NCBI GenBank assembly: GCA_964439215.1
Contig: CAYTNY010000001.1
Span: 33-64,032 of the forward strand
DNA: 64,000 bases
From: an uncultured Spirochaetia bacterium
GTDB lineage: Bacteria > Oederibacteriota > PGYV01 > CAYTNY01
Direction: 5' to 3'
Shown here: positions 2,140-32,070 of the stretch, one piece after another
How the letters are laid out: every line of letters begins with the position of its first letter
How positions within the stretch are numbered: the stretch's first letter is position 1
Notes under the pieces: generated by a model
Told to the model about the DNA's origin: nothing
Database searches by the model: none
What the model saw: only the letters and a program-made list of their open reading frames with translations
Translations under genes and position numbers: made by a program

Positions 2140-2538
2140 TCAAGCAATTACCGCAGAATCTATATTGGTAAATACATTTTCCTGCATACCCGCTCTGTCA
2201 ACCGCGGTAATTACCGTACTGTTCTTTACGCTTACAACAAGCGAAAAGTTTTCAAAGACCATAAGCGTCTCATTTGCCCCTTTTTCTTTTGCTTTTCCGA
2301 GGGCATTCTGAAGCCTGCTCATTACTTCAGGATTCATATCAATATTACGCGAATGAATCCTCTTTTCAGCGTGAGAGGAAAATTTAATATCCTGCTCTTT
2401 ACCCGCTACCTGCTGCTGATCCAATACCTGCTTAAACGATGGAGTACCCCGGTCTGTCTTCTGCAGATTCCGGCTGCGCTGCTGTGCTTCCTGCAGCTGC
2501 GACAGCTTCTGAAACTGTGAATTAATATTGTTTACCAA
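2140..2538 (-). CDS. Small flagellar operon protein between flgD and flgE (TIGR02530-like, SSHAEKRIHSRNI motif)
   Basis: 132 aa, placed between flgD and flgE as in Firmicutes-type fla operons. Contains an HAxxRxxxRxI motif that I recall from the flgD-flgE intergenic 'flagellar operon protein' family. Confidence 0.45.
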   Translation of the reverse strand: MVNNINSQFQKLSQLQEAQQRSRNLQKTDRGTPSFKQVLDQQQVAGKEQDIKFSSHAEKRIHSRNIDMNPEVMSRLQNALGKAKEKGANETLMVFENFSLVVSVKNSTVITAVDRAGMQENVFTNIDSAVIA

Positions 2539-2552
2539 CTGGTATCACCACC

Positions 2553-2996
2553 TTACGCTTTTATTTCTGTAACTGAAGAAAGTCCGAATTCCTGTCCGTT
2601 CACTACTATCTTCGGATCTCCATCAGCAAATCTTACCGCACTTACCTGTCCTTCAACATTTCCCGCTTCCGTGCTTATGGCAACATTCTTTCCGATAAGC
2701 GACGCTGCCTGAGTCGTGTTCTGCATCATCATAAGCCCGATAATATTGTCATTAAGCGAGGTTATGCTGTCCGCAAACGTCTGATTCAGGTTTGTCATCT
2801 GTTCAAGCGAAGAAAACTGCGCCATATCAGCGACAAAAGACTCGTCCTCCATAGGCTTTAACGGGTCCTGATACTTGAGCTTCGTAATAAGCATTTCCAG
2901 AAAATCCATCTTGCCCAGCGCTGAATCAGGATTATCCACCATTGATGTTGCTGTTTCGCTCAAACTGTTTGTAGATCCTACTCCGGATACATCCAT
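2553..2996 (-). CDS. flgD: Flagellar hook assembly/capping protein FlgD
   Basis: Conserved FlgD N-terminal region LGKMDFLEMLITKLKYQDPLKPMEDESFVADMAQFSSLEQ, followed by a beta-rich C-terminus. Position fliK-flgD-flgE. Confidence 0.85.
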   Translation of the reverse strand: MDVSGVGSTNSLSETATSMVDNPDSALGKMDFLEMLITKLKYQDPLKPMEDESFVADMAQFSSLEQMTNLNQTFADSITSLNDNIIGLMMMQNTTQAASLIGKNVAISTEAGNVEGQVSAVRFADGDPKIVVNGQEFGLSSVTEIKA

Positions 2997-3015
2997 TTAT
3001 TATTCACCTCCTTTC

Positions 3016-5364
3016 TTAAGCAAAATAGTTTAGGTAGCCGGTAAACGGCGCTGAAACCGCTTCGGTACCATCAGCCTCCGGCAGCCCGGATAAAGCTGTA
3101 TCGTTCAATGCGCCGCCTTCCCATTGCGCAAATTCATCAAAAGAACCTTCAAAATCTCCGCGTCCATCGCTGTTAAGCATTGATATTTCAATATTTTCAA
3201 TATCCACTCCGGCATTTCCGAGGGAAGCTCTGAGTTCCGCCGTATTTACCCTTAATATTTCCCTTGCTTCAGCACCCGCAACCTGTATCTTTGCGTTTAC
3301 TTTTTTATCAGCGGTCTCAAGTTTTATTATGACAATTCCCAGATTTTCGGGCCTTAAGAACATTTTTATTTCAGTTGTTTTCGGCGACAGCGCGTTTCCC
3401 GCCACTGCTTCAGAAACCTGCTTTAAAATAATATCGGTTTTTGCCGCCTTTGCAAATGAAGCCAGATTTTCAAAAACAGCGTTATTTGCCGCGGTTTTTA
3501 AATGATTTTCATTTTTTATCTCAAATCCCATATTTTTAACCAGCCATTCCATATCTTTTACAAGCGGATTCTTTTCAGCGTTTGCTTCCCCGCTTTTAGG
3601 CGCGGGATTCACACTGCGCTCCGGCCGGGCCTCTTTAGGCGTTTCAGCGTTTTTAACATCCGCCGCGTTTGCTTTAAGTTTTAAGTTTTCCGTGTTTTCA
3701 GGCGCAGCCGCCGGAACAGGATTTTCTTTTGCGGTTATTCCTGACATTGTTTCGGGCGAAGAAGTCTGCGCGGCGGCGCGGGCCCCTTCACGGGCCGCTG
3801 TCTCCGCGGGTTTTGTGTTTATAAGACCATCCGCGGTTTTTGTCCGCGCGGCATTCTCTGATGCCGGTGCTGCTTCAGCTTTTACCGCCGGCGCAGGTTC
3901 GGGCAAAACCGTGTTTTTCATTGGTTCCTGCGGTGCTGTTTCCGCGTTTTTTATTATTTCCATTCTGCCGTTAAGCTGCTTTAAAAGCGACGCAATCTTC
4001 ATAAAAATATCTCCGTCCTGCTTTAAAGCCTGCTGTGCAGCCGGAGCATTGTCCCCCGCATTGCCGCCTTTATCCGTATTTACGCTTATTCCTCTGATAT
4101 TTCCAGAAACAGCCTCAGGCAGGGGATTATTTGATGTATCCGCGGAAAAAGAGCCGCTTAAACTGCCTGCCCCCGCGGATGATGAAAGAACACCATTAAA
4201 AATCCCGGCCAGTCCGTTTATTTTTGAAGCTGTTTCGGCTGCCTGCTGTTCAACAGCGCCGGTATTTATTAAAATATTTTTATTTCCTGAAATTTCAGGA
4301 GTGTTTTCAGAAGCAGTTTTAGGCGGAACCCCCGTAACCTGTGCTTCCACTGACACAACGGAATTCTGCGCTCTGTTTTCAACCGCGGCAAGCCTGACTG
4401 CCGAGAAAGTATTTTCTCCGGAACTCACCGAAGGCATAAGCATTGAAACCAGTTTATTAACAGATTCCACAGCTTCTTTGACCTGTGTATTTATTTCTTT
4501 GATTTCAGACGAACTCACTGAAGGGCCTTTCTCTGATACTGCTTTTTTCAAAACTGCCGCGGCTTCCATTATATCCCTGTTCAGCTGTGCGGCAAATTCT
4601 TTTACGGTTTCAGCAGGAACTTCTGTTTTTACAAAAGCCGCGCTTTTTGCCGTATCAGCGGATATTTCAATCCGTCCGGCGCCGGCGCCGGCCGGTTCTT
4701 TTCCTGCCTGTGTTTTTACATCAGGGACCGCCGGCATTTCCGCACGCACGGGAGCGTTTTGCGCCTCCCGCAAAACTTTCTGCTCAGCGGCCTGCGGCAC
4801 AGAACCCGTATTAACAATTTCTGTATTATTCCTGTTTGACGCACCCGCGTCTTTTGAATCTGTCTGCAAATCTTTGTTATTGCCGGAAATATCTTTATTG
4901 TTTTGAACATCAAAAGCAGCATCTTTTAAATCCGCCCGAAGCGCTTTTCCCAAAGCAGTATCTGCCGCCAGCTGCACAGCGGCCGCTTTTATGCTCTCAT
5001 AAAGAATATTTTTTTCATCAGCGCTCAGGCCCTGAGCAAATGCTTTCACAACAGGATCCTGCGCTATTTCAGCTTTGCCTGAAACCGCAATGCTGCCGGC
5101 TTTGTCCATAATGAATAACGCGGATACAGCTTTATAAAGAGCGGAGTGAAGTTTTTGATTTGCGATAAGATCTTCGGCAAGGCCGGCTTTCTGAATATCA
5201 TTCCTGCTGTTTTCCTGCTGCAGCATAATATCGGACATAATGCCTTTAAATGCATTAATACTATTATTGGAATTGTTTTCATTGATAACATCTATCGGAA
5301 TACCCTGCTTTGCGGACAGACTTTGTACGTTGAGCGCTGTCAACGACAAATTTAAATTGACCAC
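3016..5364 (-). CDS. fliK: Flagellar hook-length control protein FliK, unusually long (782 aa), Ala/Glu/Pro-rich
   Basis: C-terminal Flg_hook domain (MFLRPENLGIVIIKLETADKKVNAKIQVAGAEAREILRVNTAELRASLGNAGVDIENIEI). Low-complexity central region. Position between fliJ and flgD. Start appears to be GTG with an AGGAGG RBS 7 nt upstream. Confidence 0.75.
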   Translation of the reverse strand: MVNLNLSLTALNVQSLSAKQGIPIDVINENNSNNSINAFKGIMSDIMLQQENSRNDIQKAGLAEDLIANQKLHSALYKAVSALFIMDKAGSIAVSGKAEIAQDPVVKAFAQGLSADEKNILYESIKAAAVQLAADTALGKALRADLKDAAFDVQNNKDISGNNKDLQTDSKDAGASNRNNTEIVNTGSVPQAAEQKVLREAQNAPVRAEMPAVPDVKTQAGKEPAGAGAGRIEISADTAKSAAFVKTEVPAETVKEFAAQLNRDIMEAAAVLKKAVSEKGPSVSSSEIKEINTQVKEAVESVNKLVSMLMPSVSSGENTFSAVRLAAVENRAQNSVVSVEAQVTGVPPKTASENTPEISGNKNILINTGAVEQQAAETASKINGLAGIFNGVLSSSAGAGSLSGSFSADTSNNPLPEAVSGNIRGISVNTDKGGNAGDNAPAAQQALKQDGDIFMKIASLLKQLNGRMEIIKNAETAPQEPMKNTVLPEPAPAVKAEAAPASENAARTKTADGLINTKPAETAAREGARAAAQTSSPETMSGITAKENPVPAAAPENTENLKLKANAADVKNAETPKEARPERSVNPAPKSGEANAEKNPLVKDMEWLVKNMGFEIKNENHLKTAANNAVFENLASFAKAAKTDIILKQVSEAVAGNALSPKTTEIKMFLRPENLGIVIIKLETADKKVNAKIQVAGAEAREILRVNTAELRASLGNAGVDIENIEISMLNSDGRGDFEGSFDEFAQWEGGALNDTALSGLPEADGTEAVSAPFTGYLNYFA

Positions 5365-5478
5365 AACTATGCCTCCTTTGGCATTTTACCGGCGGCCCTC
5401 CTTGCGGTCCGGACCATACTGCCGGTGGAATAATCGATTCCTTAAACACCACGTTCTCGTACTATTTCAGTTAATACA

Positions 5479-5508
5479 AGTTTACACTATAAAACATAAA
5501 TCTGTCAA
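5479..5508 (-). promoter_or_regulatory. Possible internal sigma70-type promoter upstream of fliK (TTGACA-18-TAAACT)
   Basis: On the minus strand, a -35 TTGACA (plus 5503-5508) and a -10 TAAACT (plus 5479-5484) with an 18-nt spacer, inside the 210-bp fliJ-fliK gap. Confidence 0.3.
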
Positions 5509-5574
5509 CTAAAATTTCAATTTTTTTTTTGCTTTTTTTCCAAAAAACTTACATTGTTCCTTTTATGCATGTTT

Positions 5575-6030
5575 TCAGAAATTATGCTGTTCTTTGCGGT
5601 TATATTTGCTTATAGAGGTTTCATCAAGCTGTTTCTGCTCCGCGGCAAGAATGTTTTTATTAAATATCTTATAATCCCTGTCTCTGAGCTTTTCAAATAT
5701 CTTTTTTTCCTTTGAAGCTTCAACAACCTCTTCTCTCTTCCTGTCCGCCATTTTATGGAGCTCCTGTATCTTTTTTTCAGCTTCAACAATACGGTACCTG
5801 AGCACCGAAAGATGCTGTTCGTAATAAATAAGCCTGCCTATATCGGTTCCTTTCTGTTTTTCCTCATTCTTCATACGCAGATTTTCAGCGCTGCTCCGGC
5901 TTACTGCTTTGCGTATTTTTTCCTGCTCAAGCCTCAGAGCAGTAAGATGCATAAGCTCTCTTTTCAGCGCCTCTTCTTTTTTTTCCTTGACCCTCAGAAC
6001 CGTATCAAAACGGAAAACAAATTTTTTCAT
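5575..6030 (-). CDS. fliJ: Flagellar export chaperone FliJ
   Basis: 151 aa coiled-coil protein directly downstream of fliI. N-terminus FRFDTVLRVKEKKEEALKRELMHL is typical of FliJ. Confidence 0.7.
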   Translation of the reverse strand: MKKFVFRFDTVLRVKEKKEEALKRELMHLTALRLEQEKIRKAVSRSSAENLRMKNEEKQKGTDIGRLIYYEQHLSVLRYRIVEAEKKIQELHKMADRKREEVVEASKEKKIFEKLRDRDYKIFNKNILAAEQKQLDETSISKYNRKEQHNF

Positions 6031-6036
6031 AATAGT

Positions 6037-7362
6037 TTACTCTTCCCCGGGCGGAAAAAGCGCGATAAGCCTTTTTATTGTTTCTTCATACTCCGTCTTT
6101 TCATCTATGCCCTGTATCAGAAATTTTTTCACATCGCCTATTTTGCTTATGGCCCGGTCTATCTGCGGGTTTGACCCTTCCACATACGCGCCTATATTTA
6201 TAAGGTCCTCGGCATTTTTATAAGTGGAAAGCGTTTCTTTAAGTTTTCCCGCGGCGCGTCTGTGTTCATCGGATGTTATGTCTATCATACACCTGGAAAC
6301 CGAATCAAGAAGATCAACCGGCGGATAATGGTTCTGGGACGCTATCTGCCTGGAGAGCGCAATATGCCCGTCAAGTATTGCCCTGACCGAATCTGATATC
6401 GGCTCGTTCAGGTCGTCCGCTTCCACAAGCACGGTATAAAGCCCTGTGATGGATCCCTCATGCGGGGTCGTTCCCGCTCTTTCAAGAAGCTTGGGCAGAA
6501 GCGCAAAAACAGACGGCGTGTATCCTTTTGTCGTGGGAGGCTCGCCTATCGCGAGTCCTATTTCCCTCTGCGCCATGGCAAACCTTGTTACAGAATCCAT
6601 CATAAGCATTACATTATATCCCTTATCCCTGAAATACTCGGCTATGGCGGTTCCCACAAACGCGCCCATTCTCCTTATAAGAGCGGGCTGGTCGGAAGTC
6701 GCCGCAATCACAACAGACCTTTTTAAGCCTTCTTTTTTCAGGTCCTTTTCTATAAAATCCCTGACCTCGCGCCCTCTTTCTCCCACGAGCGCTATAACGT
6801 TTATATCCGCGGATGTATTTCTTGCTATCATTCCGAGCGTTGTTGATTTTCCCACTCCTGACCCCGAAAAAATACCCATCCTCTGGCCCGTGCCTATCGT
6901 AAGAGCGCCGTCAATGCTTCTTATGCCCATGGCAACCGGATCCTGTATTTTTTTTCTGGTTATGGGATCGGAAGGTTTGTTGTAAACAGAATAATATTCT
7001 TTTGTTTTTAATCTGCCTTTGTTGTCTATAGGTTTTCCCAGCCCGTCAAGCACTCTGCCCAAAAGGCCCTCCCCCACAGATACTTTGAATTCCTCTTCGG
7101 TGGGAAAAACTTTTGCGCCCGGCCCTATTCCGTGCAGGTCGCCCAGCGGCATCAGCAGAGCTTTGCCTTCCCGGAAGCCCACGATCTCGGCTTCAAGGAC
7201 AACGTCCTCGTTTCTGGAAATCACTCTGCACACCTCGCCAACCGAGGCTCTGAGCCCGGCAGCCTCAAGAACAAGGCCCACTATCTGGGTTACTTTGCCG
7301 CTGGTTTTAAGCGGATCAATTTTGGCAAGTCTTGAATGGTATTTTTGAATGTCAGGTTTCAT
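6037..7362 (-). CDS. fliI: Flagellum-specific ATP synthase FliI
   Basis: Walker A GIFSGSGVGKST. F1/T3SS ATPase fold. Position fliH-fliI-fliJ. Confidence 0.92.
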   Translation of the reverse strand: MKPDIQKYHSRLAKIDPLKTSGKVTQIVGLVLEAAGLRASVGEVCRVISRNEDVVLEAEIVGFREGKALLMPLGDLHGIGPGAKVFPTEEEFKVSVGEGLLGRVLDGLGKPIDNKGRLKTKEYYSVYNKPSDPITRKKIQDPVAMGIRSIDGALTIGTGQRMGIFSGSGVGKSTTLGMIARNTSADINVIALVGERGREVRDFIEKDLKKEGLKRSVVIAATSDQPALIRRMGAFVGTAIAEYFRDKGYNVMLMMDSVTRFAMAQREIGLAIGEPPTTKGYTPSVFALLPKLLERAGTTPHEGSITGLYTVLVEADDLNEPISDSVRAILDGHIALSRQIASQNHYPPVDLLDSVSRCMIDITSDEHRRAAGKLKETLSTYKNAEDLINIGAYVEGSNPQIDRAISKIGDVKKFLIQGIDEKTEYEETIKRLIALFPPGEE

Positions 7363-7363
7363 T

Positions 7364-8173
7364 TCACTCTCCTGCCGAGAGTTTCTTCTTTATCTCCCCA
7401 AACTGATTTTCAATGTCCGTGTCTATAATTTCTGTTTTTGATTCAAGCCTGCACTCGCCCGGGTCAAGCATATCATCAGGATGTATATGAAGCGCCTCAA
7501 CAAGATCCGTTATATTCTCAAAATCATCCCTGTGGGATTTAACAAGCTCAAGATCTTCCGGATGGCAGTAAATATATATTTTTTCCTTGTCCTCAAGCCT
7601 CATTATCGCTTCTTTTACATGCTCTATTATTATTTTCCTGTCTGTTTTCAGTTCATTGATCACAACTTTTTTCGCGATGCCGGCCGCAAGATCAACTATT
7701 TCCTTCTCTGTTTCATTTATTATTTTGGCCTTTTCAGAAGCGGCTTTTTCTGTTATTGATTCCAGGCGCTTTACAAGCAGACTGTATTTTTCCTCTGCTT
7801 CTTCTTTGCCTTTGCCGGCCCCTTCCCCGCGTCCTTTTTCAAAGCCTTCTTCATATCCCTGCTTTGATTTTTCTTCCTTCAGCGCCTCTGCTTCTTCCCG
7901 CGCTTTTTGCATTATGCTTTCAGCGTCTTTCTCGGCTTTGCCCGTCATTTCCCCGTACTCTTTTTTCAGTTCTTCAAGTTCATTCTGTTTTTCCCGCAAA
8001 AGAGCGTCTGTTTCCTTTACCCGGGCGTTCAGATCCTCAAGTTTTTCTTCGGGTGTTTTTTCTTTCTTCTTTTCCGCGGGCTTTACCGCGGTTTTCGGCA
8101 GATAAACATTCCGCAGTTTATATTCCTCGTCCGAAAGATCATAATCTCCGGTTTTAAAAATATTCTTATACAA
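7364..8173 (-). CDS. fliH: Flagellar assembly protein FliH
   Basis: Lys/Glu-rich coiled-coil N-terminus and a FliH/YscL-like C-terminal region. Located between fliG and fliI, overlapping fliG by 8 nt. Confidence 0.75.
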   Translation of the reverse strand: MYKNIFKTGDYDLSDEEYKLRNVYLPKTAVKPAEKKKEKTPEEKLEDLNARVKETDALLREKQNELEELKKEYGEMTGKAEKDAESIMQKAREEAEALKEEKSKQGYEEGFEKGRGEGAGKGKEEAEEKYSLLVKRLESITEKAASEKAKIINETEKEIVDLAAGIAKKVVINELKTDRKIIIEHVKEAIMRLEDKEKIYIYCHPEDLELVKSHRDDFENITDLVEALHIHPDDMLDPGECRLESKTEIIDTDIENQFGEIKKKLSAGE

Positions 8174-9164
8174 AGATCTCTTCCTCCCCGCCTCTTGCCA
8201 CTACAATTTCGCCCATTTCCTCCAGCTGGCGTATTACGTTTACTATCTTCTGCTGGGCCTCTTCGGTATTCTTCAGCCTTACCGGCCCCATAACTTCCAT
8301 ATCTTCCAGTATCATCTGGCGGGCGCGGCTTGACATGTTCTTCAGTATCTTGTTTTTCGTTTCTTCCGAAGCTCCCTTTAAAGCAAGAACAAGATCTTTG
8401 GAGTCAATTTCCCTGAGTATCTGCTGGATGGTCCTGTCGTCAAGAAGCAGAACATCATCAAATACGAACATAAGCCTTTTAATCTCATCGGCAAGATCCG
8501 GATTGGTTTCTTCAAGTTTTTCCATAATTCCTTTTTCCGTACTTCTGTCAACCCTGTTAAGCATTTCAGCAACCGACCTGATTCCGCCGGCGGAAGCAAA
8601 TTCCTGGGTAAATACGGAAGCGATCCTTCTTTCAAGAACCTTTTCAACCTCCATTATAACTTCAGGAGTTGCCCTGTCCATTGTTGCTATTCTTGTTGTT
8701 ACCTCAATCTGCAGCTCCGGCGAAAGCGAAGATATGATCTCCGAACCCTGTTCCGGTGAAATATGCGCCAAAACAAGCGCGATGGTCTGAGGATGCTCAT
8801 TCTGTATAAAATTCAGTATCTGCTGCGGATCCGTCTTTTTTATAAAATCAAACGGAGTCATCTGCAGAGCGCCCTGCAGACGGTTTAATATCTCAACAGC
8901 CTTCTGCTCACCGAGCGATTTCTCAAGAAGTTCTCTGGCGTAATCAATACCGCCCTGGGATATGTACTCTTCCGCCAGCGCAAGCTGATAACTTTCCTCA
9001 AGAACCGAATCTCTGTCCTGTGATGTTATTTTTCTTGTATTTGCTATCTGAAGCGTCAGCTGTTCAACAATTTCATCGTTTAATTCTCTGAATACAGTGC
9101 TGGATAAATCAGGTCCAAGCGTAATCAAAAGTGTAGCGGCTTTCTGTTCTCCGGACATCGCCAT
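8166..9164 (-). CDS. fliG: Flagellar motor switch protein FliG
   Basis: 332 aa. N-terminus MSGEQKAATLLITLGPDLSSTVFRELNDEIVEQLTLQIA. FliG middle and C-terminal domains present. Confidence 0.9.
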   Translation of the reverse strand: MAMSGEQKAATLLITLGPDLSSTVFRELNDEIVEQLTLQIANTRKITSQDRDSVLEESYQLALAEEYISQGGIDYARELLEKSLGEQKAVEILNRLQGALQMTPFDFIKKTDPQQILNFIQNEHPQTIALVLAHISPEQGSEIISSLSPELQIEVTTRIATMDRATPEVIMEVEKVLERRIASVFTQEFASAGGIRSVAEMLNRVDRSTEKGIMEKLEETNPDLADEIKRLMFVFDDVLLLDDRTIQQILREIDSKDLVLALKGASEETKNKILKNMSSRARQMILEDMEVMGPVRLKNTEEAQQKIVNVIRQLEEMGEIVVARGGEEEIFV

Positions 9165-9171
9165 TATTATC

Positions 9172-10779
9172 TCACCTCGTTTCTTCAGTCAGCCAGCGTT
9201 TAATAAGCTGAACAATAATCTTCGGATTCTCTCTTGCTATTTTCGTGATCTGTCTTTTCATTTCCGCGCGTTTCTGCGCTTCCGCAAGCTCTGCCGCGGA
9301 CGGAACCGCTTCCAGAGGAACTTCTATTTCTTCCTCTTCCTGAACTTCCTTTGCGGCAAGTTCTATCTGTTTGCGCAGTTTTTCCCTTATCGCCTTGGGT
9401 TTAAGCGTAGAGCGCAGGAACATCAGCGCAAACAGCAGTATAACTATTATAATACCCAGACTCGTCAGCGTTGTCATATATTTTTCTCTTGATTCCACTT
9501 TGCCTTTTGCCTGCTCAGCCTGCTCAATGCTTCTGTCAAATGATATATTTTCAACAGCAACCTGGTCGCCTCTTCCCAGATCAAGCCCCGCCGCGGCAAC
9601 AACAGCGTTTCTTATGGATGTAACCTGCTGCGGCTGCAGATTGTCAACTATAACCGCAACCGACATTCTTTTTACCGCGCCTACTGTTTCTATAATATGA
9701 CTCTCTCTTTTTGTTATCTCATAATTTTCGGTTGATTCTGTTTTGTTATACTGCGAGTTCCCGCTAACAACAGACTGATAACCCGGTACATTTGAATCTG
9801 TTCCCGGAACACCGCCCGGATATACTCCCGCTCCCGTATAACTTTCAAGATTATTGCGCGAACTCCTGAGAACGCCTTTGCCCCCTACCACAGGCTCATA
9901 AACCTCATCTTTTTTCTCAACCTGGTCAAAATTCATCTCCGCGCTGACCCTTACCGAGGCTCTTCTGCGGCCGAGAACATTAAGAAGCATTGATTCAACT
10001 CTTCTTTGTATCTCCCTCTCATACTCTCTCTGTATGCGGATCTGCTGATTTGTAAGTTTCAGCTGTTTTGAAAATGAATTTGCGGTGCCGTCTTCCAGAA
10101 GCTCATCGCGTATCTGATCCGTAAGGATCTCGCCTTTTGTATTTGCTATTGTAACATTTATGGGCTTTAACCCTTCAACACCGGCTGATACAAGATGAAC
10201 AATGGATTTCACTTCATCATAACCGACATTTGCGCCGGATTCCATTCGCAGAAGAACCGAAGCGGTTGGTTCCTGCTCCTTTTCTTCATAAAGCTCTTTT
10301 TTCGGCAGAACAATATGGACTCTTGCTTCCTGTACAGAATCAAGACTTGTTATTGTTCTGTTGAGCTCCCCTTCAAGCGCTCTTACAAAATTCACCCTTT
10401 GGGTAAAATCAGTAACACCCAGATTTGTTTTATCAAATATTTCAAAACCAACTCCTCCGCCCAGAGGCAGCCCTTTTGCCGCCATCTGCAGCCGCAGGTC
10501 ATACACATCTTTGGCAGGGACGGAAATCGTCTTGCCGTCATTACCGAGTTTATATGATATATTCTGTTCTTTAAGCTCTTCAACAATATTTCCCGCGTCA
10601 TCAGAACTCAAATTTGTATATAAAGGAGTGTAATTCGGCGCCGTGGTCCATAACGCAATGACTATAAGTCCGATTAAAACAACGGTAGGAACAGCAACCC
10701 ATACAGCCCTCTGCCCGGCATTAAGACCCGCCCAGAAACCCTTCGCGCGATCCCATATTCTCAAAAGAAAATCGTTCAC
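9172..10779 (-). CDS. fliF: Flagellar MS-ring protein FliF
   Basis: 535 aa. N-terminal TM helix, a YscJ/FliF domain, a second TM helix near the C-terminus, and a charged FliG-binding tail. Confidence 0.9.
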   Translation of the reverse strand: MNDFLLRIWDRAKGFWAGLNAGQRAVWVAVPTVVLIGLIVIALWTTAPNYTPLYTNLSSDDAGNIVEELKEQNISYKLGNDGKTISVPAKDVYDLRLQMAAKGLPLGGGVGFEIFDKTNLGVTDFTQRVNFVRALEGELNRTITSLDSVQEARVHIVLPKKELYEEKEQEPTASVLLRMESGANVGYDEVKSIVHLVSAGVEGLKPINVTIANTKGEILTDQIRDELLEDGTANSFSKQLKLTNQQIRIQREYEREIQRRVESMLLNVLGRRRASVRVSAEMNFDQVEKKDEVYEPVVGGKGVLRSSRNNLESYTGAGVYPGGVPGTDSNVPGYQSVVSGNSQYNKTESTENYEITKRESHIIETVGAVKRMSVAVIVDNLQPQQVTSIRNAVVAAAGLDLGRGDQVAVENISFDRSIEQAEQAKGKVESREKYMTTLTSLGIIIVILLFALMFLRSTLKPKAIREKLRKQIELAAKEVQEEEEIEVPLEAVPSAAELAEAQKRAEMKRQITKIARENPKIIVQLIKRWLTEETR

Positions 10780-15570: not shown

Positions 15571-15810
15571 TTTTTATTTTTGATTTTTAATTTTTGATTT
15601 AAAACCAAAAACAAAACCATTGCGTGTGCGGTGCGGCGGGGTCTTTTTCGCAGGGAACACGCCCTGTCGTGTTCCGGCCTTTTAATTTTAAAACCCGGAC
15701 AAGCACAGGGGCTTGTCCCTACGAAATAAAAAATCAAAAATAAAAATGTATTTCGTCTTCATCTTTTAAGAAGTTAAATCAAAAATCACAAATAAAAAAT
15801 CAAAAATATC
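15571..15810. repeat. MITE/REP-like composite element: two GC-rich hairpin modules bounded by AT-rich inverted repeats
   Basis: Hairpin A is gggaacacgccctgtcgtgttcc at 15653-15675. Hairpin B is ggacaagcacaggggcttgtcc at 15697-15718. A is flanked by ttttcgcagg and B by cctacgaaa, which are near reverse complements, so A and B are inverted diverged copies. Left flank atttttgatttttaatttttgattt (15576-15600) is mirrored by the right flank aaatcaaaaat...aaaaaatcaaaaatatc (15728-15810). A related copy occurs at 24665-24810. Confidence 0.6.
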
Positions 15811-24664: not shown

Positions 24665-24810
24665 GCCGGAACACGGCAGCTTGGTTAAAAATCAAAAGCC
24701 GGAACACGGCAGGGCGTGTTCCCTACGAAAAAAAGAAAAAGAAAAAACTTGCGGGCCTGCGCTTTGTTTTTTTTGTTTTCGCAGGAACAATCCCCTGTGC
24801 TTGTCCGGGT
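24665..24810. repeat. Second copy of the REP-like hairpin element (modules in inverted orientation relative to 15644-15725)
   Basis: ggaacacggcagggcgtgttcc+ctacgaaa at 24701-24730, a half copy gccggaacacggcagc at 24665-24680, and ttttcgcaggaacaatcccctgtgcttgtccgggttttt at 24775-24812. The reverse complement aligns almost base-for-base with 15644-15725 (22-nt identical aaaacccggacaagcacagggg). Confidence 0.6.
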
Positions 24811-24935
24811 TTTTATTCCCAAAACTCAAAAGATCCATATTTTAAAATATTTATCCTCCATAATCCCCTTGACTTATATAATATATATATTAAAATCATA
24901 ACTGTAACAGAAGACATTTTAGGAGGTTTATTTCT

Positions 24936-25460
24936 ATGAAAATATTTAAACTTTGTTTTATTGGTTTTATATTTGTTTTTGCGGCTTCTACGGTTTTCGC
25001 GACAGAAACAGTAACGCAGACAACAACAGAAACAACAACACAGACCGTTACGCCGACAACAACGCAGACAGCCACACAGACAGTCACGGAAACAGCTACG
25101 CCTGACTGGACCCCTACCGGCACATTTACAATAACACCTACCGCCACAATAACACCGACTTTCACATCAACACCCACGCCGCAGCCTAAGTTTTTCGCTT
25201 ACCCCAACCCCGCATATACCAATGAAATAACAATTGCGTATCCTCTGGATGACGCCAAAACTCCGCTGCGGGCAACTATCATAATAAACGCGGTAAACGG
25301 CGAGGAAGCAGGAAGAATATACGATGATACGCCCAACGGATATACCCGTTTTGATATAACGGCTCTCGCAAGAGGAGTTTATTTTTACAGGCTTATAATA
25401 AAATACACGGACAATTCCGAAACTGTTCATAAATATAAAAAATTCTCAGTGGTTAAATAG
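24936..25460 (+). CDS. Secreted Thr-rich protein with a T9SS-type C-terminal sorting domain (Por_Secre_tail-like)
   Basis: Signal peptide MKIFKLCFIGFIFVFAASTVFA. About 60-aa T/Q/P-rich repeat linker (TETVTQTTTETTTQTVTPTTTQ...). C-terminal ~80 aa carry hallmarks of TIGR04183 CTDs (AYPNPAYTNEITIAY ... GVYFYRLIIKY ... KFSVVK). TAGGAGG RBS. Confidence 0.6.
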   Translation: MKIFKLCFIGFIFVFAASTVFATETVTQTTTETTTQTVTPTTTQTATQTVTETATPDWTPTGTFTITPTATITPTFTSTPTPQPKFFAYPNPAYTNEITIAYPLDDAKTPLRATIIINAVNGEEAGRIYDDTPNGYTRFDITALARGVYFYRLIIKYTDNSETVHKYKKFSVVK

Positions 25461-25471
25461 GAGGCCTGCAT

Positions 25472-26410
25472 ATGAAAAAAATCACCGCAGCCATTACGCT
25501 TTTTCTTTTAATATCAACACAGCTTTTTGCTGTAACCGAAATTTACGACGATTCTTCAACCGTAGCGGGGAAATTTCTGGACCTTAAGGCCGGAGCCGCG
25601 GCAGGCGGCATGGGGAATGCCTATATCAACTCTTCCGTTGACGCAGGCGCCGCTTTCTGGAATCCCGCGGGGCTTTCAAATATGATAAAAGAAGATAAAG
25701 AATGGTCAATGTTCTTTTCGCACAATGTCTGGATCATGGATATGATGATAGACCACTTTTCAGCCGCGTCATATTTTCCTGAGTACGGCGTTTTTGCCCT
25801 TAGTGCTTCTTATTTTAACGCCGGCGCAATAGAACGCTATGATATTGACGGGAACGGACTTTATATAAGCAGCGGAACCTATTCGCCCTACTCGCTCATG
25901 ACCGCGCTTGCCTACTCAAATCATCTGGACAAGGACATAGACTTCGGAATAAACCTGAAATATATCTACGATAACATTGACGGCTCTTCGGCCCACGCTT
26001 ATGCCATAGATATGGGGCTCAGATATTTTTCTCCTATAGACGGCTTAAACTTCGGTCTTACAGCCTCTAATTTTTCCGGTTCCCTCAATGGTTTTATTCT
26101 GCCGAAAGAAATGTCTTTTGCTGTTTCATACAGCACTGAAATACAGAAATTCGGAATTGACGCGGAATACAACATAATAGGCAAAGTAAACAACTACCCG
26201 CTGCACAGAATCGGGCTGCAGATAGCCGCTCCTTCGGTATTTACAGCGAGATTCGGCTATCAGACAGATAACACGCTGACGGAAAACGGCTTCAGAAATC
26301 TCACGCTGGGAATAGGGCTGGATTTTGACGGCAGATACATAGATTTCTCCTATGAACCTTTTGGCGATATCGGAAATTCTTTCAAGCTTTCCATCGGCGG
26401 GGGCTTTTGA
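25472..26410 (+). CDS. PorV/PorQ-like (UPF0164/FadL-like) outer-membrane beta-barrel
   Basis: Signal peptide. N-terminal motif GAAAGGMGNAYINSSVDAGAAFWNPAGLS. Alternating beta-strand pattern ending in an aromatic residue. AGGAGG RBS. 12 nt downstream of the CTD-cargo gene. Confidence 0.55.
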   Translation: MKKITAAITLFLLISTQLFAVTEIYDDSSTVAGKFLDLKAGAAAGGMGNAYINSSVDAGAAFWNPAGLSNMIKEDKEWSMFFSHNVWIMDMMIDHFSAASYFPEYGVFALSASYFNAGAIERYDIDGNGLYISSGTYSPYSLMTALAYSNHLDKDIDFGINLKYIYDNIDGSSAHAYAIDMGLRYFSPIDGLNFGLTASNFSGSLNGFILPKEMSFAVSYSTEIQKFGIDAEYNIIGKVNNYPLHRIGLQIAAPSVFTARFGYQTDNTLTENGFRNLTLGIGLDFDGRYIDFSYEPFGDIGNSFKLSIGGGF

Positions 26411-26413
26411 TAC

Positions 26414-27787
26414 TCAGTCTATAACAAGTTTATAGTCTTTTATTTTTCTCCAGAGCGTTGACCTTGAAACACCAAGCGCTTTGGAGATTTTTGTATGGTT
26501 TTTCCCGAATCTCTCAAACGCTTTTAATATAACCCTCTTTTCAACCTCCGCAAGATTAAACTCATCATCAATGTTTTTGTCTTTTTCTCCGGATTCAGGA
26601 CTGTCCGGATTATACGCTTCAAGTTCTCTGTAAGGAGTAATATTCTGAAGATGAACCGGCAGGTCTTCCACCGTGATATAATCCCCGTTAGAAAGCGCAA
26701 AAGCATGCTGGATTATATTTTCCATTTCCCTCACATTTCCGGGATAATCATAGTACATAAGTATTGCCTTTGCCTTTTGTTCTATTCCCATTATGTTTTT
26801 TTTATTGAGTTTGTTGTATTTTTCTATAAAAAAACGCACCAGAACAGGTATGTCGTCTTTTCTTTCCCTCAGAGGCGGTATCTCTATATGTATTACATTC
26901 AGCCGGAAAAACAGGTCTTCGCGGAATCTTTTTTCTTTTATCGCCTCTTTCAGATCCTGATTTGTCGCGGCAATTACGCGTATATCAACCTTTTTGGTGT
27001 TTTCATCCCCAAGTCTTCTGACTTCTCTGTACTCCAGCGTCCTGAGAAGTTTTGCCTGAAGCCCGAGGCTCAAATCGCCGATTTCATCAAGAAACAGCGT
27101 GCCCTTATCCGCCAGTTCAATCAGTCCTTTTTTATCCGATACAGCTCCCGTAAACGCCCCTTTTCTGTATCCAAACAGCTCTGATTCAAGAAGATTTTCA
27201 GGAATAGCCGCGGAATTCACCGCTATAAAAGGATTATTGGACCTGCCGCTCATTTCATAAAGCGCCCTTGCAATCAATTCCTTTCCTGTTCCGGTTTCTC
27301 CCGTAATAAGAATATTGCTGTTATTTGAAGCAACTTTCTTTACAATTCCCGTAACCTTTCTGATCTTCTCGGAATTTCCCACAAACCTGTTTTCGAAATA
27401 TTCCAATGCGTCCATATCCTCTTCCCGTTCTTTTTCCATAAACGCTTTTTCCGCAAGGTATTTAATTTCATTCAGATTTATGGGTTTTGATATATAGGCA
27501 AATCCGGCCCGGCCCGCCATTTCTATTGCTTTGTTTATTTTTTCCCTGCCGCTTACAACCACAACTTTAAGCGAAGGGGTTCTTCTTTTTATGAAATTTA
27601 TTATGTCCAGTTCCAGCTCTTCCACGATGTCAATGTCAAGTATAAGAAGTTTGAAATTACTCTGTATCTTGTTCATGAGTGATCCGGAATCCGTGACAAT
27701 ATAAGGAGAATAAGACAACTCATCAAAAAAATTGTTTATTCTTATGGCATCATCTTTATCTGTAAGCGCAACAAGTATTTTCCCCAT
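26414..27787 (-). CDS. Sigma54-dependent Fis-family response regulator (NtrC-like, REC-AAA-HTH)
   Basis: Walker A GETGTGKELIARALYE. Sigma54-contact GAFTGA motif (ESELFGYRKGAFTGA). C-terminal Fis HTH KALGVSRSTLWRKIKDY. N-terminal receiver-like domain. No histidine kinase adjacent. Confidence 0.85.
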   Translation of the reverse strand: MGKILVALTDKDDAIRINNFFDELSYSPYIVTDSGSLMNKIQSNFKLLILDIDIVEELELDIINFIKRRTPSLKVVVVSGREKINKAIEMAGRAGFAYISKPINLNEIKYLAEKAFMEKEREEDMDALEYFENRFVGNSEKIRKVTGIVKKVASNNSNILITGETGTGKELIARALYEMSGRSNNPFIAVNSAAIPENLLESELFGYRKGAFTGAVSDKKGLIELADKGTLFLDEIGDLSLGLQAKLLRTLEYREVRRLGDENTKKVDIRVIAATNQDLKEAIKEKRFREDLFFRLNVIHIEIPPLRERKDDIPVLVRFFIEKYNKLNKKNIMGIEQKAKAILMYYDYPGNVREMENIIQHAFALSNGDYITVEDLPVHLQNITPYRELEAYNPDSPESGEKDKNIDDEFNLAEVEKRVILKAFERFGKNHTKISKALGVSRSTLWRKIKDYKLVID

Positions 27788-27794
27788 CTTAAAG

Positions 27795-30149
27795 CTATTC
27801 TCCTTTGATCTGCTTTCTTAGATCCAGTAAACCGCTGTCTTCCGGAAATGTTTTTATTCCGCGATCCAAAACATTCAATGCTTGTTTTTTGTTTCCTTTT
27901 GTATAATACACATATGCTTCAAAACTATAAAGTTCCGCGGAATTTGTTTCATTTTTTGCTTTTTTGAAGTTCTCCAGTGCTTTTTCATACCTCTTTGTTT
28001 GAAAATAAAACACTCCCAGATTCCTATATATTATACCTTCCTTATAATCATTTTCAAGTAAAAAATCCGCAATGTATTCTGCTTTCCGGTATTCATTTTG
28101 AGTCAGTTTTTCGCCTTTTGAAAGCATTTCAGTAAGCTTAGCCATTGCAATTTCAAACCATTTGCTGTTATCTGATTCTTTCAGCGATTTAAGCAGAGCA
28201 GCAACCCTGCTGTTTTCACTTCCCATTGATACTGCTTTTTTCAGATTTTCACCGGCTTTTTCAAAGATTCCAAGATTAAAATATATTCCTCCAAGATGCT
28301 CAAAAACCCTGGGATTGCTTTCTTCTTTTTCCGCGGCTAAAATAAGATATTTCATTTCATTTTTAAAATCATCAAGATTTGAATAAGCAAGAGCAATATT
28401 ATAAAAGATCATTGATTCCGGCTTGTCCACAGGGAACAAAAGCGCTTTTTTATAAAGTTTTACCGCTTCCTCCGGATAACCCGACGCATTCAGTGCATTT
28501 GCCTGATTTACCATACTTACGGGGTACCATCCTATCAGATCATTATTGTTCTTTGTAAGCCTCGCAAAATCTTCAAACACCCCCCTATACGAATATCTTT
28601 CAAAAACATCCGGACCATAAAGCCTCTGTTTTTTTGATATCCTCAGCAGTATGCCTTTCTGGGAAAAAACAAACCCTTCAGGCGGATGCTCCATTTCAGG
28701 CAGATAGCTGCTCCTGTAAACCGCTTCATCCGGAGAATAAAACCGCACAATCTCAGCAATATTTTCCGCGGTCTTAAACGGCGTCATTTTTATATCACCG
28801 TATCTGCCGGAAAAATCCTCAATACCCCAGTCAAATATAATAAAAGAAGATGTAGCAAACTTAACATCCTTTCGTCTTTTCTGTACTTCCATAATATAAT
28901 ACAGCGGCATAAGGTTATAATCGCCGTCAGCTATATAGACGCCGTCTTTTTCCACGGTCCTTAAAATATTATATCCGTAATCATAGGATAGATAATCCTC
29001 TTTATAATCATTTTTTATGAAATTGGACCAAAACATAAGAACCCCGCCGGCCGCGGCAAGAACAATAAAAAGTTTTTTATACCGCCGGCCCCTTATTCTT
29101 GTGTAAATATACGCTATTCCTGCTGAAATAAAAAGCCCTGCCAGATAGACCGCGGGCATAAGAAAAATATATATCAGCCAGATAACGCCTTCCTGTGTTC
29201 TGTTAAGAAAAACAACCGCAAATATTATAATAAAAGCAGCTGCCGCCAGAAGAACCGATATTCCGCGCGCCCTCTTATAGCCGGCATAAATACCGGCCGG
29301 CAGAAAAACACACAGCACCGAAAAATTCACGGCAAAAAGATATAAAAAATGCTTTACCTGGTATAAATACACATCAGCGGAAGGCGTGACAGGATTAACA
29401 TATCCCCGGCGCAGAACAACCCATAAGAATCCGGATAAGCCGGAAGAAGGATCGCCCCAGTTAAAAACAGGATCAGAAGATGACCTGATAACAAGAAATA
29501 AATACGGCGTGAGCCCTGCCAGAAAAAACAGCGCGGAAATAATATAATTTTTCCCTGATGTCTTTTTGCGGAAAATATATAGACAGGAAGCAAAAACCGG
29601 CGCTAATATTATCATGCTGGGCCAGTGATTGGAAAGGGACAAGCCATAGATATAGGATGACATATATATATATACAGGCGTCTTTGCGCTTTTTGCCTTA
29701 AGCATGGAAAAAATAATAACCGCAAGAAACAGCAGGTTCAGCATATAAATACTTCCCTTTGCCTCTGTTCCCTGATTCCAGAAAATATAGGAAAACGCCG
29801 TTAAAACCGCTCCCGCCCCCGCCCATATGCGCATACCGCTTCCGAAAATATTTATATTAAGCATGATCAGTATTCTGTAAGTCATATAAAGTATTATCAT
29901 CCCCAGAAACGAAGAAAAAACATTCATTCGGAACGCCGGAGACGCAAAAGAAGGCAGGCAGGCGATCTTCCCTGCCATTGTGTGCAGAGGATAAGCCGGA
30001 GGATGCGCTATGCCCAGAGTGTATGCCGCAGCCGCGGTCTCGGGCGAATCATTGTTTTTAAACACAGGGTTCATCGTGTGAAGATAAACACCGAATATAA
30101 AAACCACAACAACCACAGCCGCCGTATATGTTATTGGCTTTTGCTTCAT
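27795..30149 (-). CDS. DUF2723-family (TMEM260/GT-C-like) polytopic membrane protein fused to C-terminal TPR repeats
   Basis: N-terminal motif AYTLGIAHPPAYPLHTMAG typical of DUF2723. About 11 TM helices over the first ~400 aa. C-terminal ~300 aa of TPR-like repeats. Confidence 0.6.
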   Translation of the reverse strand: MKQKPITYTAAVVVVVFIFGVYLHTMNPVFKNNDSPETAAAAYTLGIAHPPAYPLHTMAGKIACLPSFASPAFRMNVFSSFLGMIILYMTYRILIMLNINIFGSGMRIWAGAGAVLTAFSYIFWNQGTEAKGSIYMLNLLFLAVIIFSMLKAKSAKTPVYIYMSSYIYGLSLSNHWPSMIILAPVFASCLYIFRKKTSGKNYIISALFFLAGLTPYLFLVIRSSSDPVFNWGDPSSGLSGFLWVVLRRGYVNPVTPSADVYLYQVKHFLYLFAVNFSVLCVFLPAGIYAGYKRARGISVLLAAAAFIIIFAVVFLNRTQEGVIWLIYIFLMPAVYLAGLFISAGIAYIYTRIRGRRYKKLFIVLAAAGGVLMFWSNFIKNDYKEDYLSYDYGYNILRTVEKDGVYIADGDYNLMPLYYIMEVQKRRKDVKFATSSFIIFDWGIEDFSGRYGDIKMTPFKTAENIAEIVRFYSPDEAVYRSSYLPEMEHPPEGFVFSQKGILLRISKKQRLYGPDVFERYSYRGVFEDFARLTKNNNDLIGWYPVSMVNQANALNASGYPEEAVKLYKKALLFPVDKPESMIFYNIALAYSNLDDFKNEMKYLILAAEKEESNPRVFEHLGGIYFNLGIFEKAGENLKKAVSMGSENSRVAALLKSLKESDNSKWFEIAMAKLTEMLSKGEKLTQNEYRKAEYIADFLLENDYKEGIIYRNLGVFYFQTKRYEKALENFKKAKNETNSAELYSFEAYVYYTKGNKKQALNVLDRGIKTFPEDSGLLDLRKQIKGE

Positions 30150-30201: not shown

Positions 30202-32070
30202 TTATTCCGGTCCTTGTTCTGTTTTAATTATTGCTTTTATATAAGGATCCATTTTTCCGTCATCACCGTTAAACCGAATATACTTTTCAGCTGTTTTTTT
30301 CGCGTTTTCTGTATCACCGGCCGCCATATACGCGGTTATAAGGTTTATATAAGCCGTTTCATAGTGCGGCGCCGCAAAAACAGCGGTTTCAAGATGCTGT
30401 ATCGCTTCTTTGAGGCTGCCGGTGCCCTCCGCGGACAGCTGCCCGGAAAGCGCGCCGAACATATTATTCACTTCAGGACAATACGGATTTATTTCCAGGT
30501 CTTTTTTATAATATTCATAGGCTTTTTTCGGATACCCGGCCTGCCGGTAGGCTTCCGCCGCATAATAATACTGAGCAACATCTGTCTGCGGGCAAAGCTC
30601 AACGTTATTCTGCTCAACTATACGCTCATAATAATTTATAGCGCTTTTATAATGCCCGCTTTTGACCAGACGGTTGGCCTGCTTAAGATATATGTTTGAC
30701 GCGGCCGCTTTTCCGTCCGCAGCCGCCGAAAACATTATCAGAAAAGCCGATGCAGCAGCTCCGGCTATGGCGCCTTTTTTTCCTATGCCGGCGCTTTTTA
30801 ATGACCGCTCTTTCTTATATGCCGACACAAAAAATATGAGTATAAAAAAATAAAGTGTTGTCGCCGGAATATTGTAAAAAGTATTAAACAGCGAAGCGCC
30901 CAGCAGCGCAGCAGCGCCCGAAACCGCTCCAGCAAGAAAAGGATCGCCTCTTTTTCTTATATAAAAACTCCTGTAAGCGGAATAAAACAATACCGCAACA
31001 ACGGCAAGAAAGGCCCCCAGCCCTAAAATACCCGTTTCCGAGGCTATAAGTATATAATTCTGATGAGGCATCCAGGTCACCACATAATCATATTTATCGT
31101 TTTTTGGATCATTTAAAAGTATTCCCTGGTAATGCGGAAAATTCAGTCTGTACATACCCATGCCTTTGCCTTTAACCGGTGATTCTTTGATCATGAGCCA
31201 TCCGGCTTCCCACATAAGAAACCTGTGTATCACAGACCGCTGCTTGCCTTCAAGAAATCTTTTTGATTCTGCCAAAACAGCCGGATATACGGCGGCGCCG
31301 CCGATAATAAGCGCAAGCAGCGCGGCGGCAGCTGCCTTTTTGCGCCGTTTAATGAACATTTTCACATGACTGCCTTTTAATGTCAGCCATAAGATTGCAA
31401 ACAAAGCCATGCCGCCCGCAAAACCTATGTAAGTACCCGCCACTTTTGCGTATAAAAATACCGCGAACATAACAACAAACCCCGCACCCGCGGCAGCCTT
31501 ATGTTTTTTTCCCAAAACCGCGTAAGACAGCAGAAGAAACATCGGTATAAGAAGCTGTGACGCAAAAAAATTAGGATTGCCGATGGTGCCCATGGGCCGC
31601 CCCTGAAAATTTGTGTTCCAGCTGAAAATATCCGCATCAAATCTCTGAGCAAGCCCGTAAACCGCCATTATCACATGGACAAAAAACACTAAAAACAGCA
31701 TTCTTCTGCCGTCATTTTCATCGGAAACGTTCCAGATAAAATAGGCCCCGAAAATAAAAAGTACAAGTTCAAAAGCATACTTGGAGGCGATCTGCGCATT
31801 CATCGCCCATGCAACGGAAAGAACCGCGATAACCGCATATAAGAACGCGGGAAAAAGAGCAGGATTGATTTTTACCTCAAATCCCCCTCTGCGCCGCGCT
31901 TCAAGAAAATACAGCAAAAAGAAAAAAGGCAGAAAAAGACGCGCGGCCATAAGCTGGGCAGGGCCGAAAGGATCAAAAAACGGCTGAAAAAAAACCACGG
32001 GGATAAACAGAATTATGAAATTAAGAATATTTTTTCTTAAAAGAATTAACAGCCTGAGATTCAATATCAC
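30202..32070 (-). CDS. O-antigen ligase (Wzy_C)-domain membrane protein fused to C-terminal TPR repeats
   Basis: Multi-TM N-terminal region with Wzy_C hallmarks (GNPNFFASQLL; MPHQNYILIASETGILGLGAFL). C-terminal ~200 aa TPR repeats (KSAINYYERIVEQN...AEAYRQAGYPKKAYEYYKKDLEINP). Confidence 0.6.
   Translation of the reverse strand: MILNLRLLILLRKNILNFIILFIPVVFFQPFFDPFGPAQLMAARLFLPFFFLLYFLEARRRGGFEVKINPALFPAFLYAVIAVLSVAWAMNAQIASKYAFELVLFIFGAYFIWNVSDENDGRRMLFLVFFVHVIMAVYGLAQRFDADIFSWNTNFQGRPMGTIGNPNFFASQLLIPMFLLLSYAVLGKKHKAAAGAGFVVMFAVFLYAKVAGTYIGFAGGMALFAILWLTLKGSHVKMFIKRRKKAAAAALLALIIGGAAVYPAVLAESKRFLEGKQRSVIHRFLMWEAGWLMIKESPVKGKGMGMYRLNFPHYQGILLNDPKNDKYDYVVTWMPHQNYILIASETGILGLGAFLAVVAVLFYSAYRSFYIRKRGDPFLAGAVSGAAALLGASLFNTFYNIPATTLYFFILIFFVSAYKKERSLKSAGIGKKGAIAGAAASAFLIMFSAAADGKAAASNIYLKQANRLVKSGHYKSAINYYERIVEQNNVELCPQTDVAQYYYAAEAYRQAGYPKKAYEYYKKDLEINPYCPEVNNMFGALSGQLSAEGTGSLKEAIQHLETAVFAAPHYETAYINLITAYMAAGDTENAKKTAEKYIRFNGDDGKMDPYIKAIIKTEQGPE

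Follow-up and report, generated by a model that had tools for sequence, protein, structure and literature searches.

Positions 24,936 to 26,410 of the 64,000-nucleotide stretch of DNA analysed here (contig CAYTNY010000001.1; the window) carry two adjacent genes, the first encoding a small protein of 174 amino acids (aa) and the second an outer-membrane beta-barrel related to PorV, the carrier protein of type IX secretion systems (T9SS). The small protein consists only of a signal peptide, a Thr-x linker and a type A-like C-terminal sorting domain (CTD), and has no passenger domain. This apparent two-gene operon is probably a module formed by a cognate sorting-tail protein and its PorV-like carrier or anchor, acting in type IX-like surface sorting in a flagellated bacterium outside the Fibrobacteres-Chlorobi-Bacteroidetes (FCB) group. 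Both proteins were 100% identical to entries of a Candidatus Goldiibacteriota (Goldbacteria) metagenome-assembled genome (GCA_046542475.1, contig JBKHBI010000001.1, 76,115 bp). What is new here is a passenger-less type A CTD protein that is hard-wired to a probably dedicated PorV/PorQ-family barrel and conserved across a flagellated non-FCB phylum. A preliminary description of the locus, made from the letters alone, had reported both open reading frames (ORFs) together with the signal peptide, the Thr-rich linker and the CTD motifs, all of which were recovered. The spacer between the stop of the small gene and the start of the barrel gene, given there as twelve nucleotides, is 11 nt, one base fewer.

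The C-terminal domain of the small protein

The CTD occupies the last 90 residues of the small protein and contains the motifs YPNPA (residues 89-93), RGVYFY and KKFSVVK. Scored alone against the two profiles suggested in the preliminary description, the window protein remained below threshold, with 21.7 bits for PF18962 (gathering threshold 27) and 20.2 bits for TIGR04183 (cutoff 23). The family as a whole behaved differently: PF18962 was matched by 15 of the 16 homologues at E ≤0.01 (best E 1.6e-9), and many homologues carry a precomputed PF18962 annotation. When the CTD profile was compared by hhalign with sorting domains annotated as type A in Ignavibacteriaceae and Bacteroidetes, a probability of 98.2% was obtained (E 5e-14). 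CHU_C gave faint matches in 3 of the 16 homologues only. On these sequence comparisons, the assignment of the C-terminus as a type A T9SS sorting domain is secure at the family level. The protein had been called a T9SS cargo, which holds for its tail but not in the sense of a passenger to be delivered.

With the CTD profile, 1.84 billion representatives were searched exhaustively by HMMER, which returned 971 matches at E ≤1e-3. Among the best 150 of these 971 matches, found in proteins of 70 to 3586 aa, the domain lay no more than 5 residues from the C-terminus in 126. Extreme C-terminal placement in proteins of such varied length argues that the domain behaves as a C-terminal sorting signal. 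A word-indexed protein search with the CTD-only profile, which gave 8 matches only, was superseded by the exhaustive search.

The alignment of the 16 homologues contained 26 invariant columns, P90, P92, G147, Y149, K169 and F170 among them, while Y89 and N91 were nearly invariant. Type A CTDs carry a near-invariant, functionally important Lys near the C-terminus (PMC10994853). K169 corresponds to this residue, and the invariant Lys was aligned across the Goldbacteria CTDs. Identity between CTDs was 42-63% within the paired family, compared with 24-25% to other Goldbacteria CTDs. Such conservation is unusually strong for a sorting signal, which in the normal case is removed by cleavage and lost.

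The AlphaFold2 model of the domain is a beta-sandwich with 8 strand segments at residues 91-174, and its predicted local distance difference test (pLDDT) values were 75-96 per 10-residue block, most of them above 90. The known type A fold is a seven-stranded immunoglobulin (Ig)-like beta-sandwich; a beta-sandwich is predicted for the window CTD, and the PxP and GxY motifs and the Lys are present in it. The Foldseek search with the small protein was led by generic FN3/Ig folds, the CTDs of mirolase and PorU ranking 8 and 14, respectively, and the fold alone therefore cannot assign the CTD. A PDB sequence search with the full-length family profile matched only Pro/Thr linkers (8zvk) and no CTDs, and was uninformative because of the low complexity of the linker.

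The PorV-like barrel

The barrel protein matched the PorV/PorQ family model NF033709 with 124.4 bits against a cutoff of 90 (E 7e-36), its residues 32-309 aligning with model positions 3-323 of 326, and the NCBI name of the identical protein is 'PorV/PorQ family protein'. A profile built from 32 barrel relatives found Flavobacterium johnsoniae PorV of the translocon structures (6h3i_F) with an E of 5.7e-26, followed by TodX at 0.03. The AlphaFold2 model had a mean pLDDT of 89.5, and its Foldseek search placed PorV first (8gl6_F, E 2.4e-13, TM score 0.73), followed by 6h3i_F and then by FadL (2.4e-7). The scores against the equivalog models were 67.5 bits for PorV (NF033710, cutoff 250), 69.8 bits for PorQ (NF033711, cutoff 220) and 51.8 bits for PorV2 (NF052325, cutoff 325). 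As all three scores fell short of their cutoffs, the barrel is best classified as a FadL-like member of the PorV/PorQ family and not as an orthologue of any named subunit. The term PorV-like used in the preliminary description is apt in this family sense, though the protein is not PorV itself.

The two genes might also be coincidental neighbours, namely a FadL-type channel for hydrophobic substrates and an unrelated Ig-fold protein of the periplasm or surface. The barrel has retained the FadL-type NPA motif (FWNPAGL, with N64 and P65 invariant) and gives weak Toluene_X matches, and generic FN3 domains dominate the fold search with the CTD, as would be expected from such an arrangement. However, the PorV-family score is above the cutoff and PorV is the best match in sequence and fold, by 6-20 orders of magnitude over FadL and TodX. 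The adjacency of the two genes is also maintained over phylum-level divergence, and CTD genes are strongly enriched beside PorV-family barrels, as described below. Coincidence is accordingly very improbable, and largely refuted.

Conservation of the pair

The ordered pair was present in every Goldbacteria contig inspected (loci L001, L002/L003, L004/L005, L006/L007 and L019), with gaps of ≤14 nt by longest-ORF calling. The barrel orthologues were 44-75% identical, and occurred in single copy at a conserved locus in all Goldbacteria contigs seen. The upstream partner was usually a protein of 154-208 aa with signal peptide, linker and CTD. In two lineages it carried two extra Ig-like domains and reached 465 or 479 aa.

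The signal-peptide position was aligned in all homologues of the small protein, and cleavage is predicted at VFA/TET. The linker that follows is 52% Thr, with 27 T-x-T steps. Its confidence in the AlphaFold2 model was low throughout, with pLDDT <50 at residues 22-61. The linkers of the homologues (n=11) were 41-52% Thr and 45-95 aa long, the length differing between species. As 11 homologues have comparable linkers, the Thr-rich linker is a conserved feature and not chance low complexity. The preliminary description had also proposed variation in repeat number within the linker. Tandem Repeats Finder detected a period of 36 (2.2 copies, 77% match) and a period of 12 (67%) in the linker DNA, and a repeat search gave 12-nt-shifted copies that were 62-74% identical. 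With no strain variants available for comparison, the proposal is not supported, and a contingency locus was rejected, the DNA repeats being only 62-77% identical.

Neighbouring genes and possible glycosylation

On the 3' side of the pair, and on the opposite strand, there was always a sigma-54 activator followed by one or two TMEM260-like GT-C glycosyltransferases with tetratricopeptide repeats (TPR). This block was kept in L004 even though the upstream synteny was broken. The sigma-54-dependent regulator occupied the same position in L001, L002, L004 and L006, and the TMEM260-like gene was syntenic with the pair in every Goldbacteria locus examined. A Wzy_C-TPR gene was kept in most loci; it was syntenic in L002 and L004, and in L006/L007 an ROK gene directly follows the TMEM260-like gene. 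TMEM260 is a TPR-bearing protein O-mannosyltransferase that acts on Thr in Ig-like domains (PMC10214176). From their position, the TMEM260-like and Wzy_C genes are candidates for encoding enzymes that glycosylate the Thr-rich linker. With these conserved neighbours as circumstantial evidence, O-glycosylation of the linker is plausible. By inspection, the Bacteroidota O-glycosylation motif D(S/T)(A/I/L/V/M/T) did not occur in the window linker, and the Bacteroidota O-glycosylation system is therefore not implied.

The invariant response-regulator neighbour also bears on the possibility that the CTD protein is a regulatory ligand or machinery subunit which mainly signals to, or primes, the sorting machinery. 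A precedent is PorA (PGN_0123), a small type A CTD protein that was found bound to PorV (PMC12152298, PMC7712824), and whose CTD alone binds PorY and activates PorXY-SigP signalling (PMC12152298). A CTD that is the only folded domain of the protein and is strongly conserved would suit such a function. The neighbouring regulator, however, lies on the opposite strand and belongs to the sigma-54 activators; it is not a homologue of PorX or PorY. No sigma-54 -24/-12 element was found upstream of the pair, and matches to this element across the window were fewer than expected by chance; the adjacent activator was accordingly dropped as a driver of the pair. PorA also has a FimH-like N-terminal domain (PMC7712824), which is missing here, and the conserved Thr-rich stalk would be left without a role. 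A mainly regulatory function is thus considered improbable.

Other pairs of barrel and CTD genes

The window encodes a second PorV/PorQ-family barrel, in a fusion protein of 671 aa that is 24% identical to the barrel of the pair. The barrel of the fusion occupies residues 39-331 and the OmpA domain residues 550-665, so that a PorV-like barrel and a PorE-like OmpA_C anchor appear, in effect, to be joined in one polypeptide. In another locus (L012), a CTD cargo of 1352 aa is followed directly by a 480-aa relative, a PorV-OmpA barrel, and then by a second PorV-family barrel. A barrel/CTD-only pair in reversed order was found in Goldbacteria HGW-1 (GCA_002839855.1; L010, 8757-10753), where the gene of a 415-aa PorV-family barrel (74.5 bits) shares 4 nt with the start of the P0014 gene. 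The 250-aa protein P0014 is again passenger-less, with a signal peptide, a Thr linker and a CTD, and scored 27.4 bits against the TIGR04183 cutoff of 23. The same locus has, 6 kb upstream, a further weak PorV-family barrel (328 aa). At least four PorV-family paralogues occur in the Goldbacteria lineage, and several of them each lie beside a CTD gene. T9SS core genes did not adjoin the distant PorV paralogues in L008, L013 and L015.

A survey of 80 metagenomic PorV-family loci was performed, in which all ORFs were scanned with hidden Markov models built from our own alignments. A same-strand CTD ORF was located within 600 bp of the barrel in 53 of the 80 loci, and most of the CTD ORFs in the surveyed loci (63 of 75) adjoined a barrel. 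The partners included true PorU (in the order porU-porV), M6-like inactivated metalloproteases, glycanases and beta-propeller proteins. The M6-like inactivated metalloproteases were the commonest large partner, with 11 of 44 at E ≤1e-5 (best 1.9e-177). Twelve partners were small CTD proteins (≤260 aa). The encoding of a CTD protein beside a PorV-like barrel is therefore a widespread arrangement, of which the Goldbacteria pair is the minimal form.

Two families of CTD proteins stood out in the survey. One, among the small partners, is a recurrent family of ~190 aa (L029, L031, L043, L047 and L037) in which a signal or anchor segment is followed by ~70 aa bearing GGDY-type motifs and then by a type A CTD that ends in KGKFAVIR or KGRIVIIR. 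In each case the gene lies directly upstream of that of a PorV-family barrel, which makes this another passenger-poor CTD/barrel pair. The other is a conserved CTD family of ~312-344 aa (L027, L040, L069 and L087; …IKVYPNPFKPSEGHTE…GKVVIIR) with an unannotated N-terminal domain; at its stop, the gene adjoins or overlaps the start of the gene for a PorV-family barrel of 372-406 aa.

These data bear on the possibility that the barrel is a general PorV and the small protein a canonical substrate, from which the CTD would be cut by a PorU-type sortase to leave a glycosylated Thr-rich peptide of ~60 aa on lipopolysaccharide as a surface coat. The single-copy barrel orthologue, at a housekeeping-like locus in all Goldbacteria contigs seen, is consistent with a general shuttle, as are the full set of type A motifs in the CTD, including the invariant Lys, and the large Goldbacteria CTD cargos that do not each have a barrel of their own, for example the 1163-aa beta-helix protein of L006 (TIGR04183 24 bits). 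Forms of PorA linked to anionic lipopolysaccharide (A-LPS) are also known (PMC12152298). On the other hand, the PorV-family paralogues that lie beside CTD genes fit dedicated pairs better, no PorU was seen on the 76-kb contig, and a CTD due for removal is not expected to be the best-conserved part of its protein. A general shuttle with a processed substrate deserves attention as an alternative, though it is unlikely.

Comparison with known systems

The arrangement resembles porU-porV, the canonical order of which was seen in L018, in that the barrel gene lies directly downstream of a type A CTD gene. As with PorV (LptO), the window barrel belongs to the same NCBIfam family, and PorV is its best PDB match in both sequence and fold. 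The window barrel, with 312 aa, is ~90 aa shorter than F. johnsoniae PorV (402 aa), the region matching PorV ~220-322 being much shorter. Unlike in porU-porV, the upstream partner is a passenger-less protein of 174 aa and not a sortase of 1100 aa, and the host belongs to a flagellated non-FCB phylum. PorQ-PorZ resembles the proposed module in having a PorV/PorQ-family barrel and an uncleaved CTD, and the PorQ score of the window barrel (69.8) was as good as its PorV score. PorZ differs from the small protein in being a large beta-propeller A-LPS carrier, and porZ and porQ are not known to be adjacent in Porphyromonas gingivalis.

For type B CTD proteins, the cognate PorP/SprF barrel is encoded directly downstream (PMC12618676). 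The window pair shares with the SprB-SprF type B pairs of F. johnsoniae the order of a substrate gene followed by the gene of its own outer-membrane carrier or anchor. In contrast to these, the window tail is type A-like (PF18962/TIGR04183) and the barrel belongs to the PorV/PorQ and not the PorP/SprF family. The rule of a barrel beside a CTD gene points to a modular organisation of 'one tail, one barrel', earlier accounts of which were limited to type B CTDs and PorP/SprF. PorA and Fjoh_0547, which reach the surface or the medium without the Sov/SprA translocon (PMC7712824, PMC12152298), are like the window protein very small type A CTD proteins. The window protein differs from PorA in having a Thr-rich linker only, in place of the FimH-like domain, and no PorXY system is adjacent. 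NCBIfam also holds models for PorV2 (NF052325), PorU2 (NF052324) and a T9SS-dependent M6-like inactivated metalloprotease (NF052323), which suggest that NCBI curators distinguish a second PorV/PorU-like set; no paper describing these models was found in the literature.

A proposed mechanism

As the small protein has no passenger domain and consists of linker and tail only, a role as partner or ligand of the barrel is more likely than one as an ordinary exported enzyme. Type A CTDs are bound by the extracellular loops of PorV (PMC10994853), and PorU, which sits on PorV, and PorZ, which sits on PorQ, both retain their CTDs (PMC12152298). In the cognate module proposed here, the small protein would be exported by Sec and its Thr-rich stalk would probably receive O-glycans in the periplasm, which the neighbouring GT-C or Wzy_C enzymes might attach. 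The protein's own barrel would then capture the CTD on its extracellular loops, in the way that PorV captures type A CTDs, and the CTD would stay bound and uncleaved, as do PorU on PorV and PorZ on PorQ. The outcome might be an abundant, glycosylated surface stalk anchored on the barrel, or else a subunit with an accessory or regulatory role in the sorting machinery, comparable to PorA. The CTD is the sole folded part of the protein and is unusually conserved, which is easier to reconcile with a stable, specific interaction than with a disposable signal. For studying how CTDs dock on PorV-type carriers, a passenger-less CTD protein and its own barrel are also a minimal pair.

Several results weigh against a cognate module. 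The CTD scores of the window protein itself lie under the curated cutoffs of PF18962 and TIGR04183, and its fold search was headed by generic folds. A large CTD cargo is encoded just upstream of the pair in L006, so that the barrel could serve several cargos. SprA/Sov, PorU and GldK/L/M/N were absent from the ~50 window proteins and from the rest of the 76-kb contig, where the other T9SS-type component was the second PorV-family barrel. Lastly, retention of the CTD, its binding to this barrel and glycosylation are all proposed steps.

The host, its flagella and the range of T9SS

Goldbacteria, whose sibling clades are Firestonebacteria and Elusimicrobia, carry flagellar genes (PMC7031533). T9SS has been assigned to the FCB group, with Goldbacteria outside it (PMC7031533, PMC12611786, PMC12618676), and SprA has been described as FCB-specific (PMC12611786). 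The host of the pair, Candidatus Goldiibacteriota, therefore falls outside the Bacteroidota/FCB range of T9SS, and a search of the literature on T9SS in Goldbacteria or Elusimicrobia returned nothing relevant.

A fla-type flagellar cluster was found in the window at 177-10779, encoding FliF, FliG, FliH, FliI, FliJ, FliK and FlgE, and the remainder of the contig added MotAB and FliL through FliR. Over the window and the contig remainder (L016), the gene order was flgB-flgC-fliE-fliF-fliG-fliH-fliI-fliJ-fliK-flgD-flgE-…-flbD-motA-motB-fliL-fliM-fliN-fliO-fliP-fliQ-fliR. This confirmed the fla-type order of a flagellated organism with a Bacillus subtilis-type fla operon, as it had been described. 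The window also contains BamA, Skp, LpxA/C/D/I and ordinary housekeeping genes.

In the literature, T9SS, the PorV carrier and the CTD signal are seen as hallmarks of Bacteroidota, or at most of FCB, and are tied to gliding and not to flagella. Measured against that view, it was fair to call the combination of a CTD/PorV-like pair with a fla operon unusual, although pairs of PorV-family barrels and CTDs are common in metagenomes and uncultivated lineages. The hard-wired pair throughout the Goldbacteria phylum shows that the CTD/carrier part is more widely distributed. A broader proposal is that Goldbacteria sort their surface proteins by cognate type A CTD/PorV-like pairs, perhaps without SprA and GldKLMN. 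Such sorting would amount to a carrier-only route, minimal or ancestral, comparable to the Sov-independent delivery of PorA and Fjoh_0547 to the surface, with the passenger-less protein as its simplest client. If SprA and GldKLMN are present, T9SS would not be restricted to FCB and would coexist with flagella. This broader proposal is speculative, and on present evidence it is doubtful. The presence or absence of SprA, PorU and GldKLMN in Goldbacteria genomes would be informative either way.

Gene layout and transcription signals

The features of the pair and of the related window genes are given in Table 1. The function of the promoter-like site at 24869..24896 is predicted from its match to the consensus. 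The Shine-Dalgarno sequence of the barrel gene overlaps the stop of the small gene, which suggests co-transcription and coupled translation. With these predicted promoter and Shine-Dalgarno sites, the pair looks like a strongly expressed bicistronic operon.

Table 1. Positions of the gene pair, its signals and domains, and related genes in the window.
Feature	Position	Strand	Basis
Sigma-70-type promoter-like site, TTGACT-16-TAAAAT	24869..24896	+	10/12 consensus positions; consensus match only
Shine-Dalgarno sequence of the small gene, tAGGAGG	24921..24927	+	read from sequence; 8 nt ahead of ATG
Small CTD gene	24936..25460	+	174-aa ORF, ORF calling
Predicted signal peptide, residues 1-22 (VFA/TET)	24936..25001	+	hydrophobic N-terminus; AlphaFold2 helix at residues 3-20
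Thr-rich alternating (T-x)n linker, residues 23-84 (62 aa)	25002..25187	+	composition; predicted disordered
Type A T9SS-like CTD, residues 85-174 and stop	25188..25460	+	hidden Markov model, hhalign, AlphaFold2
Shine-Dalgarno sequence of the barrel gene, AGGAGG	25459..25464	+	read from sequence; overlaps the TAG stop of the small gene
PorV/PorQ-family outer-membrane beta-barrel gene	25472..26410	+	312-aa ORF, ORF calling
Sigma-54-dependent response regulator, convergent with the pair	26414..27787	-	Pfam Sigma54_activat, Response_reg, HTH_8
TMEM260-like GT-C protein O-mannosyltransferase homologue with TPR	27795..30149	-	PF11028 76 bits, and TPR
Wzy_C (O-antigen ligase/O-oligosaccharyltransferase-like) and TPR membrane protein	30202..32070	-	PF04932 53 bits
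Second PorV/PorQ-family barrel with Ig-like (FlgD_ig) and OmpA_C peptidoglycan-binding domains, 671 aa	15818..17836	-	NF033709 111.1 bits against 90

Other observations

A lone HNH endonuclease ORF (52107-52682, + strand), flanked by BamA and an M23 peptidase, lies within a housekeeping block whose other genes are on the minus strand. Outside the window, the flagellar cluster is broken between flgE and flbD by a DUF559 endonuclease-like gene (L016, 12479-13172).

An Rfam scan of the 344-bp intergenic region upstream of the pair gave miRNA matches at chance level only. One copy of an intergenic repeat of ~45 nt lies within this region; its two copies, at 24701-24722 and 15654-15675, are in opposite orientation. 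The repeat contains the hairpin GGAACACG-N6-CGTGTTCC, with 0 and 1 mismatches where none would be expected by chance, and a second motif, CCCCTGTGCTTGTCCGGGTTTT, is common to both copies near the hairpin. This repeat may be a REP-like element.

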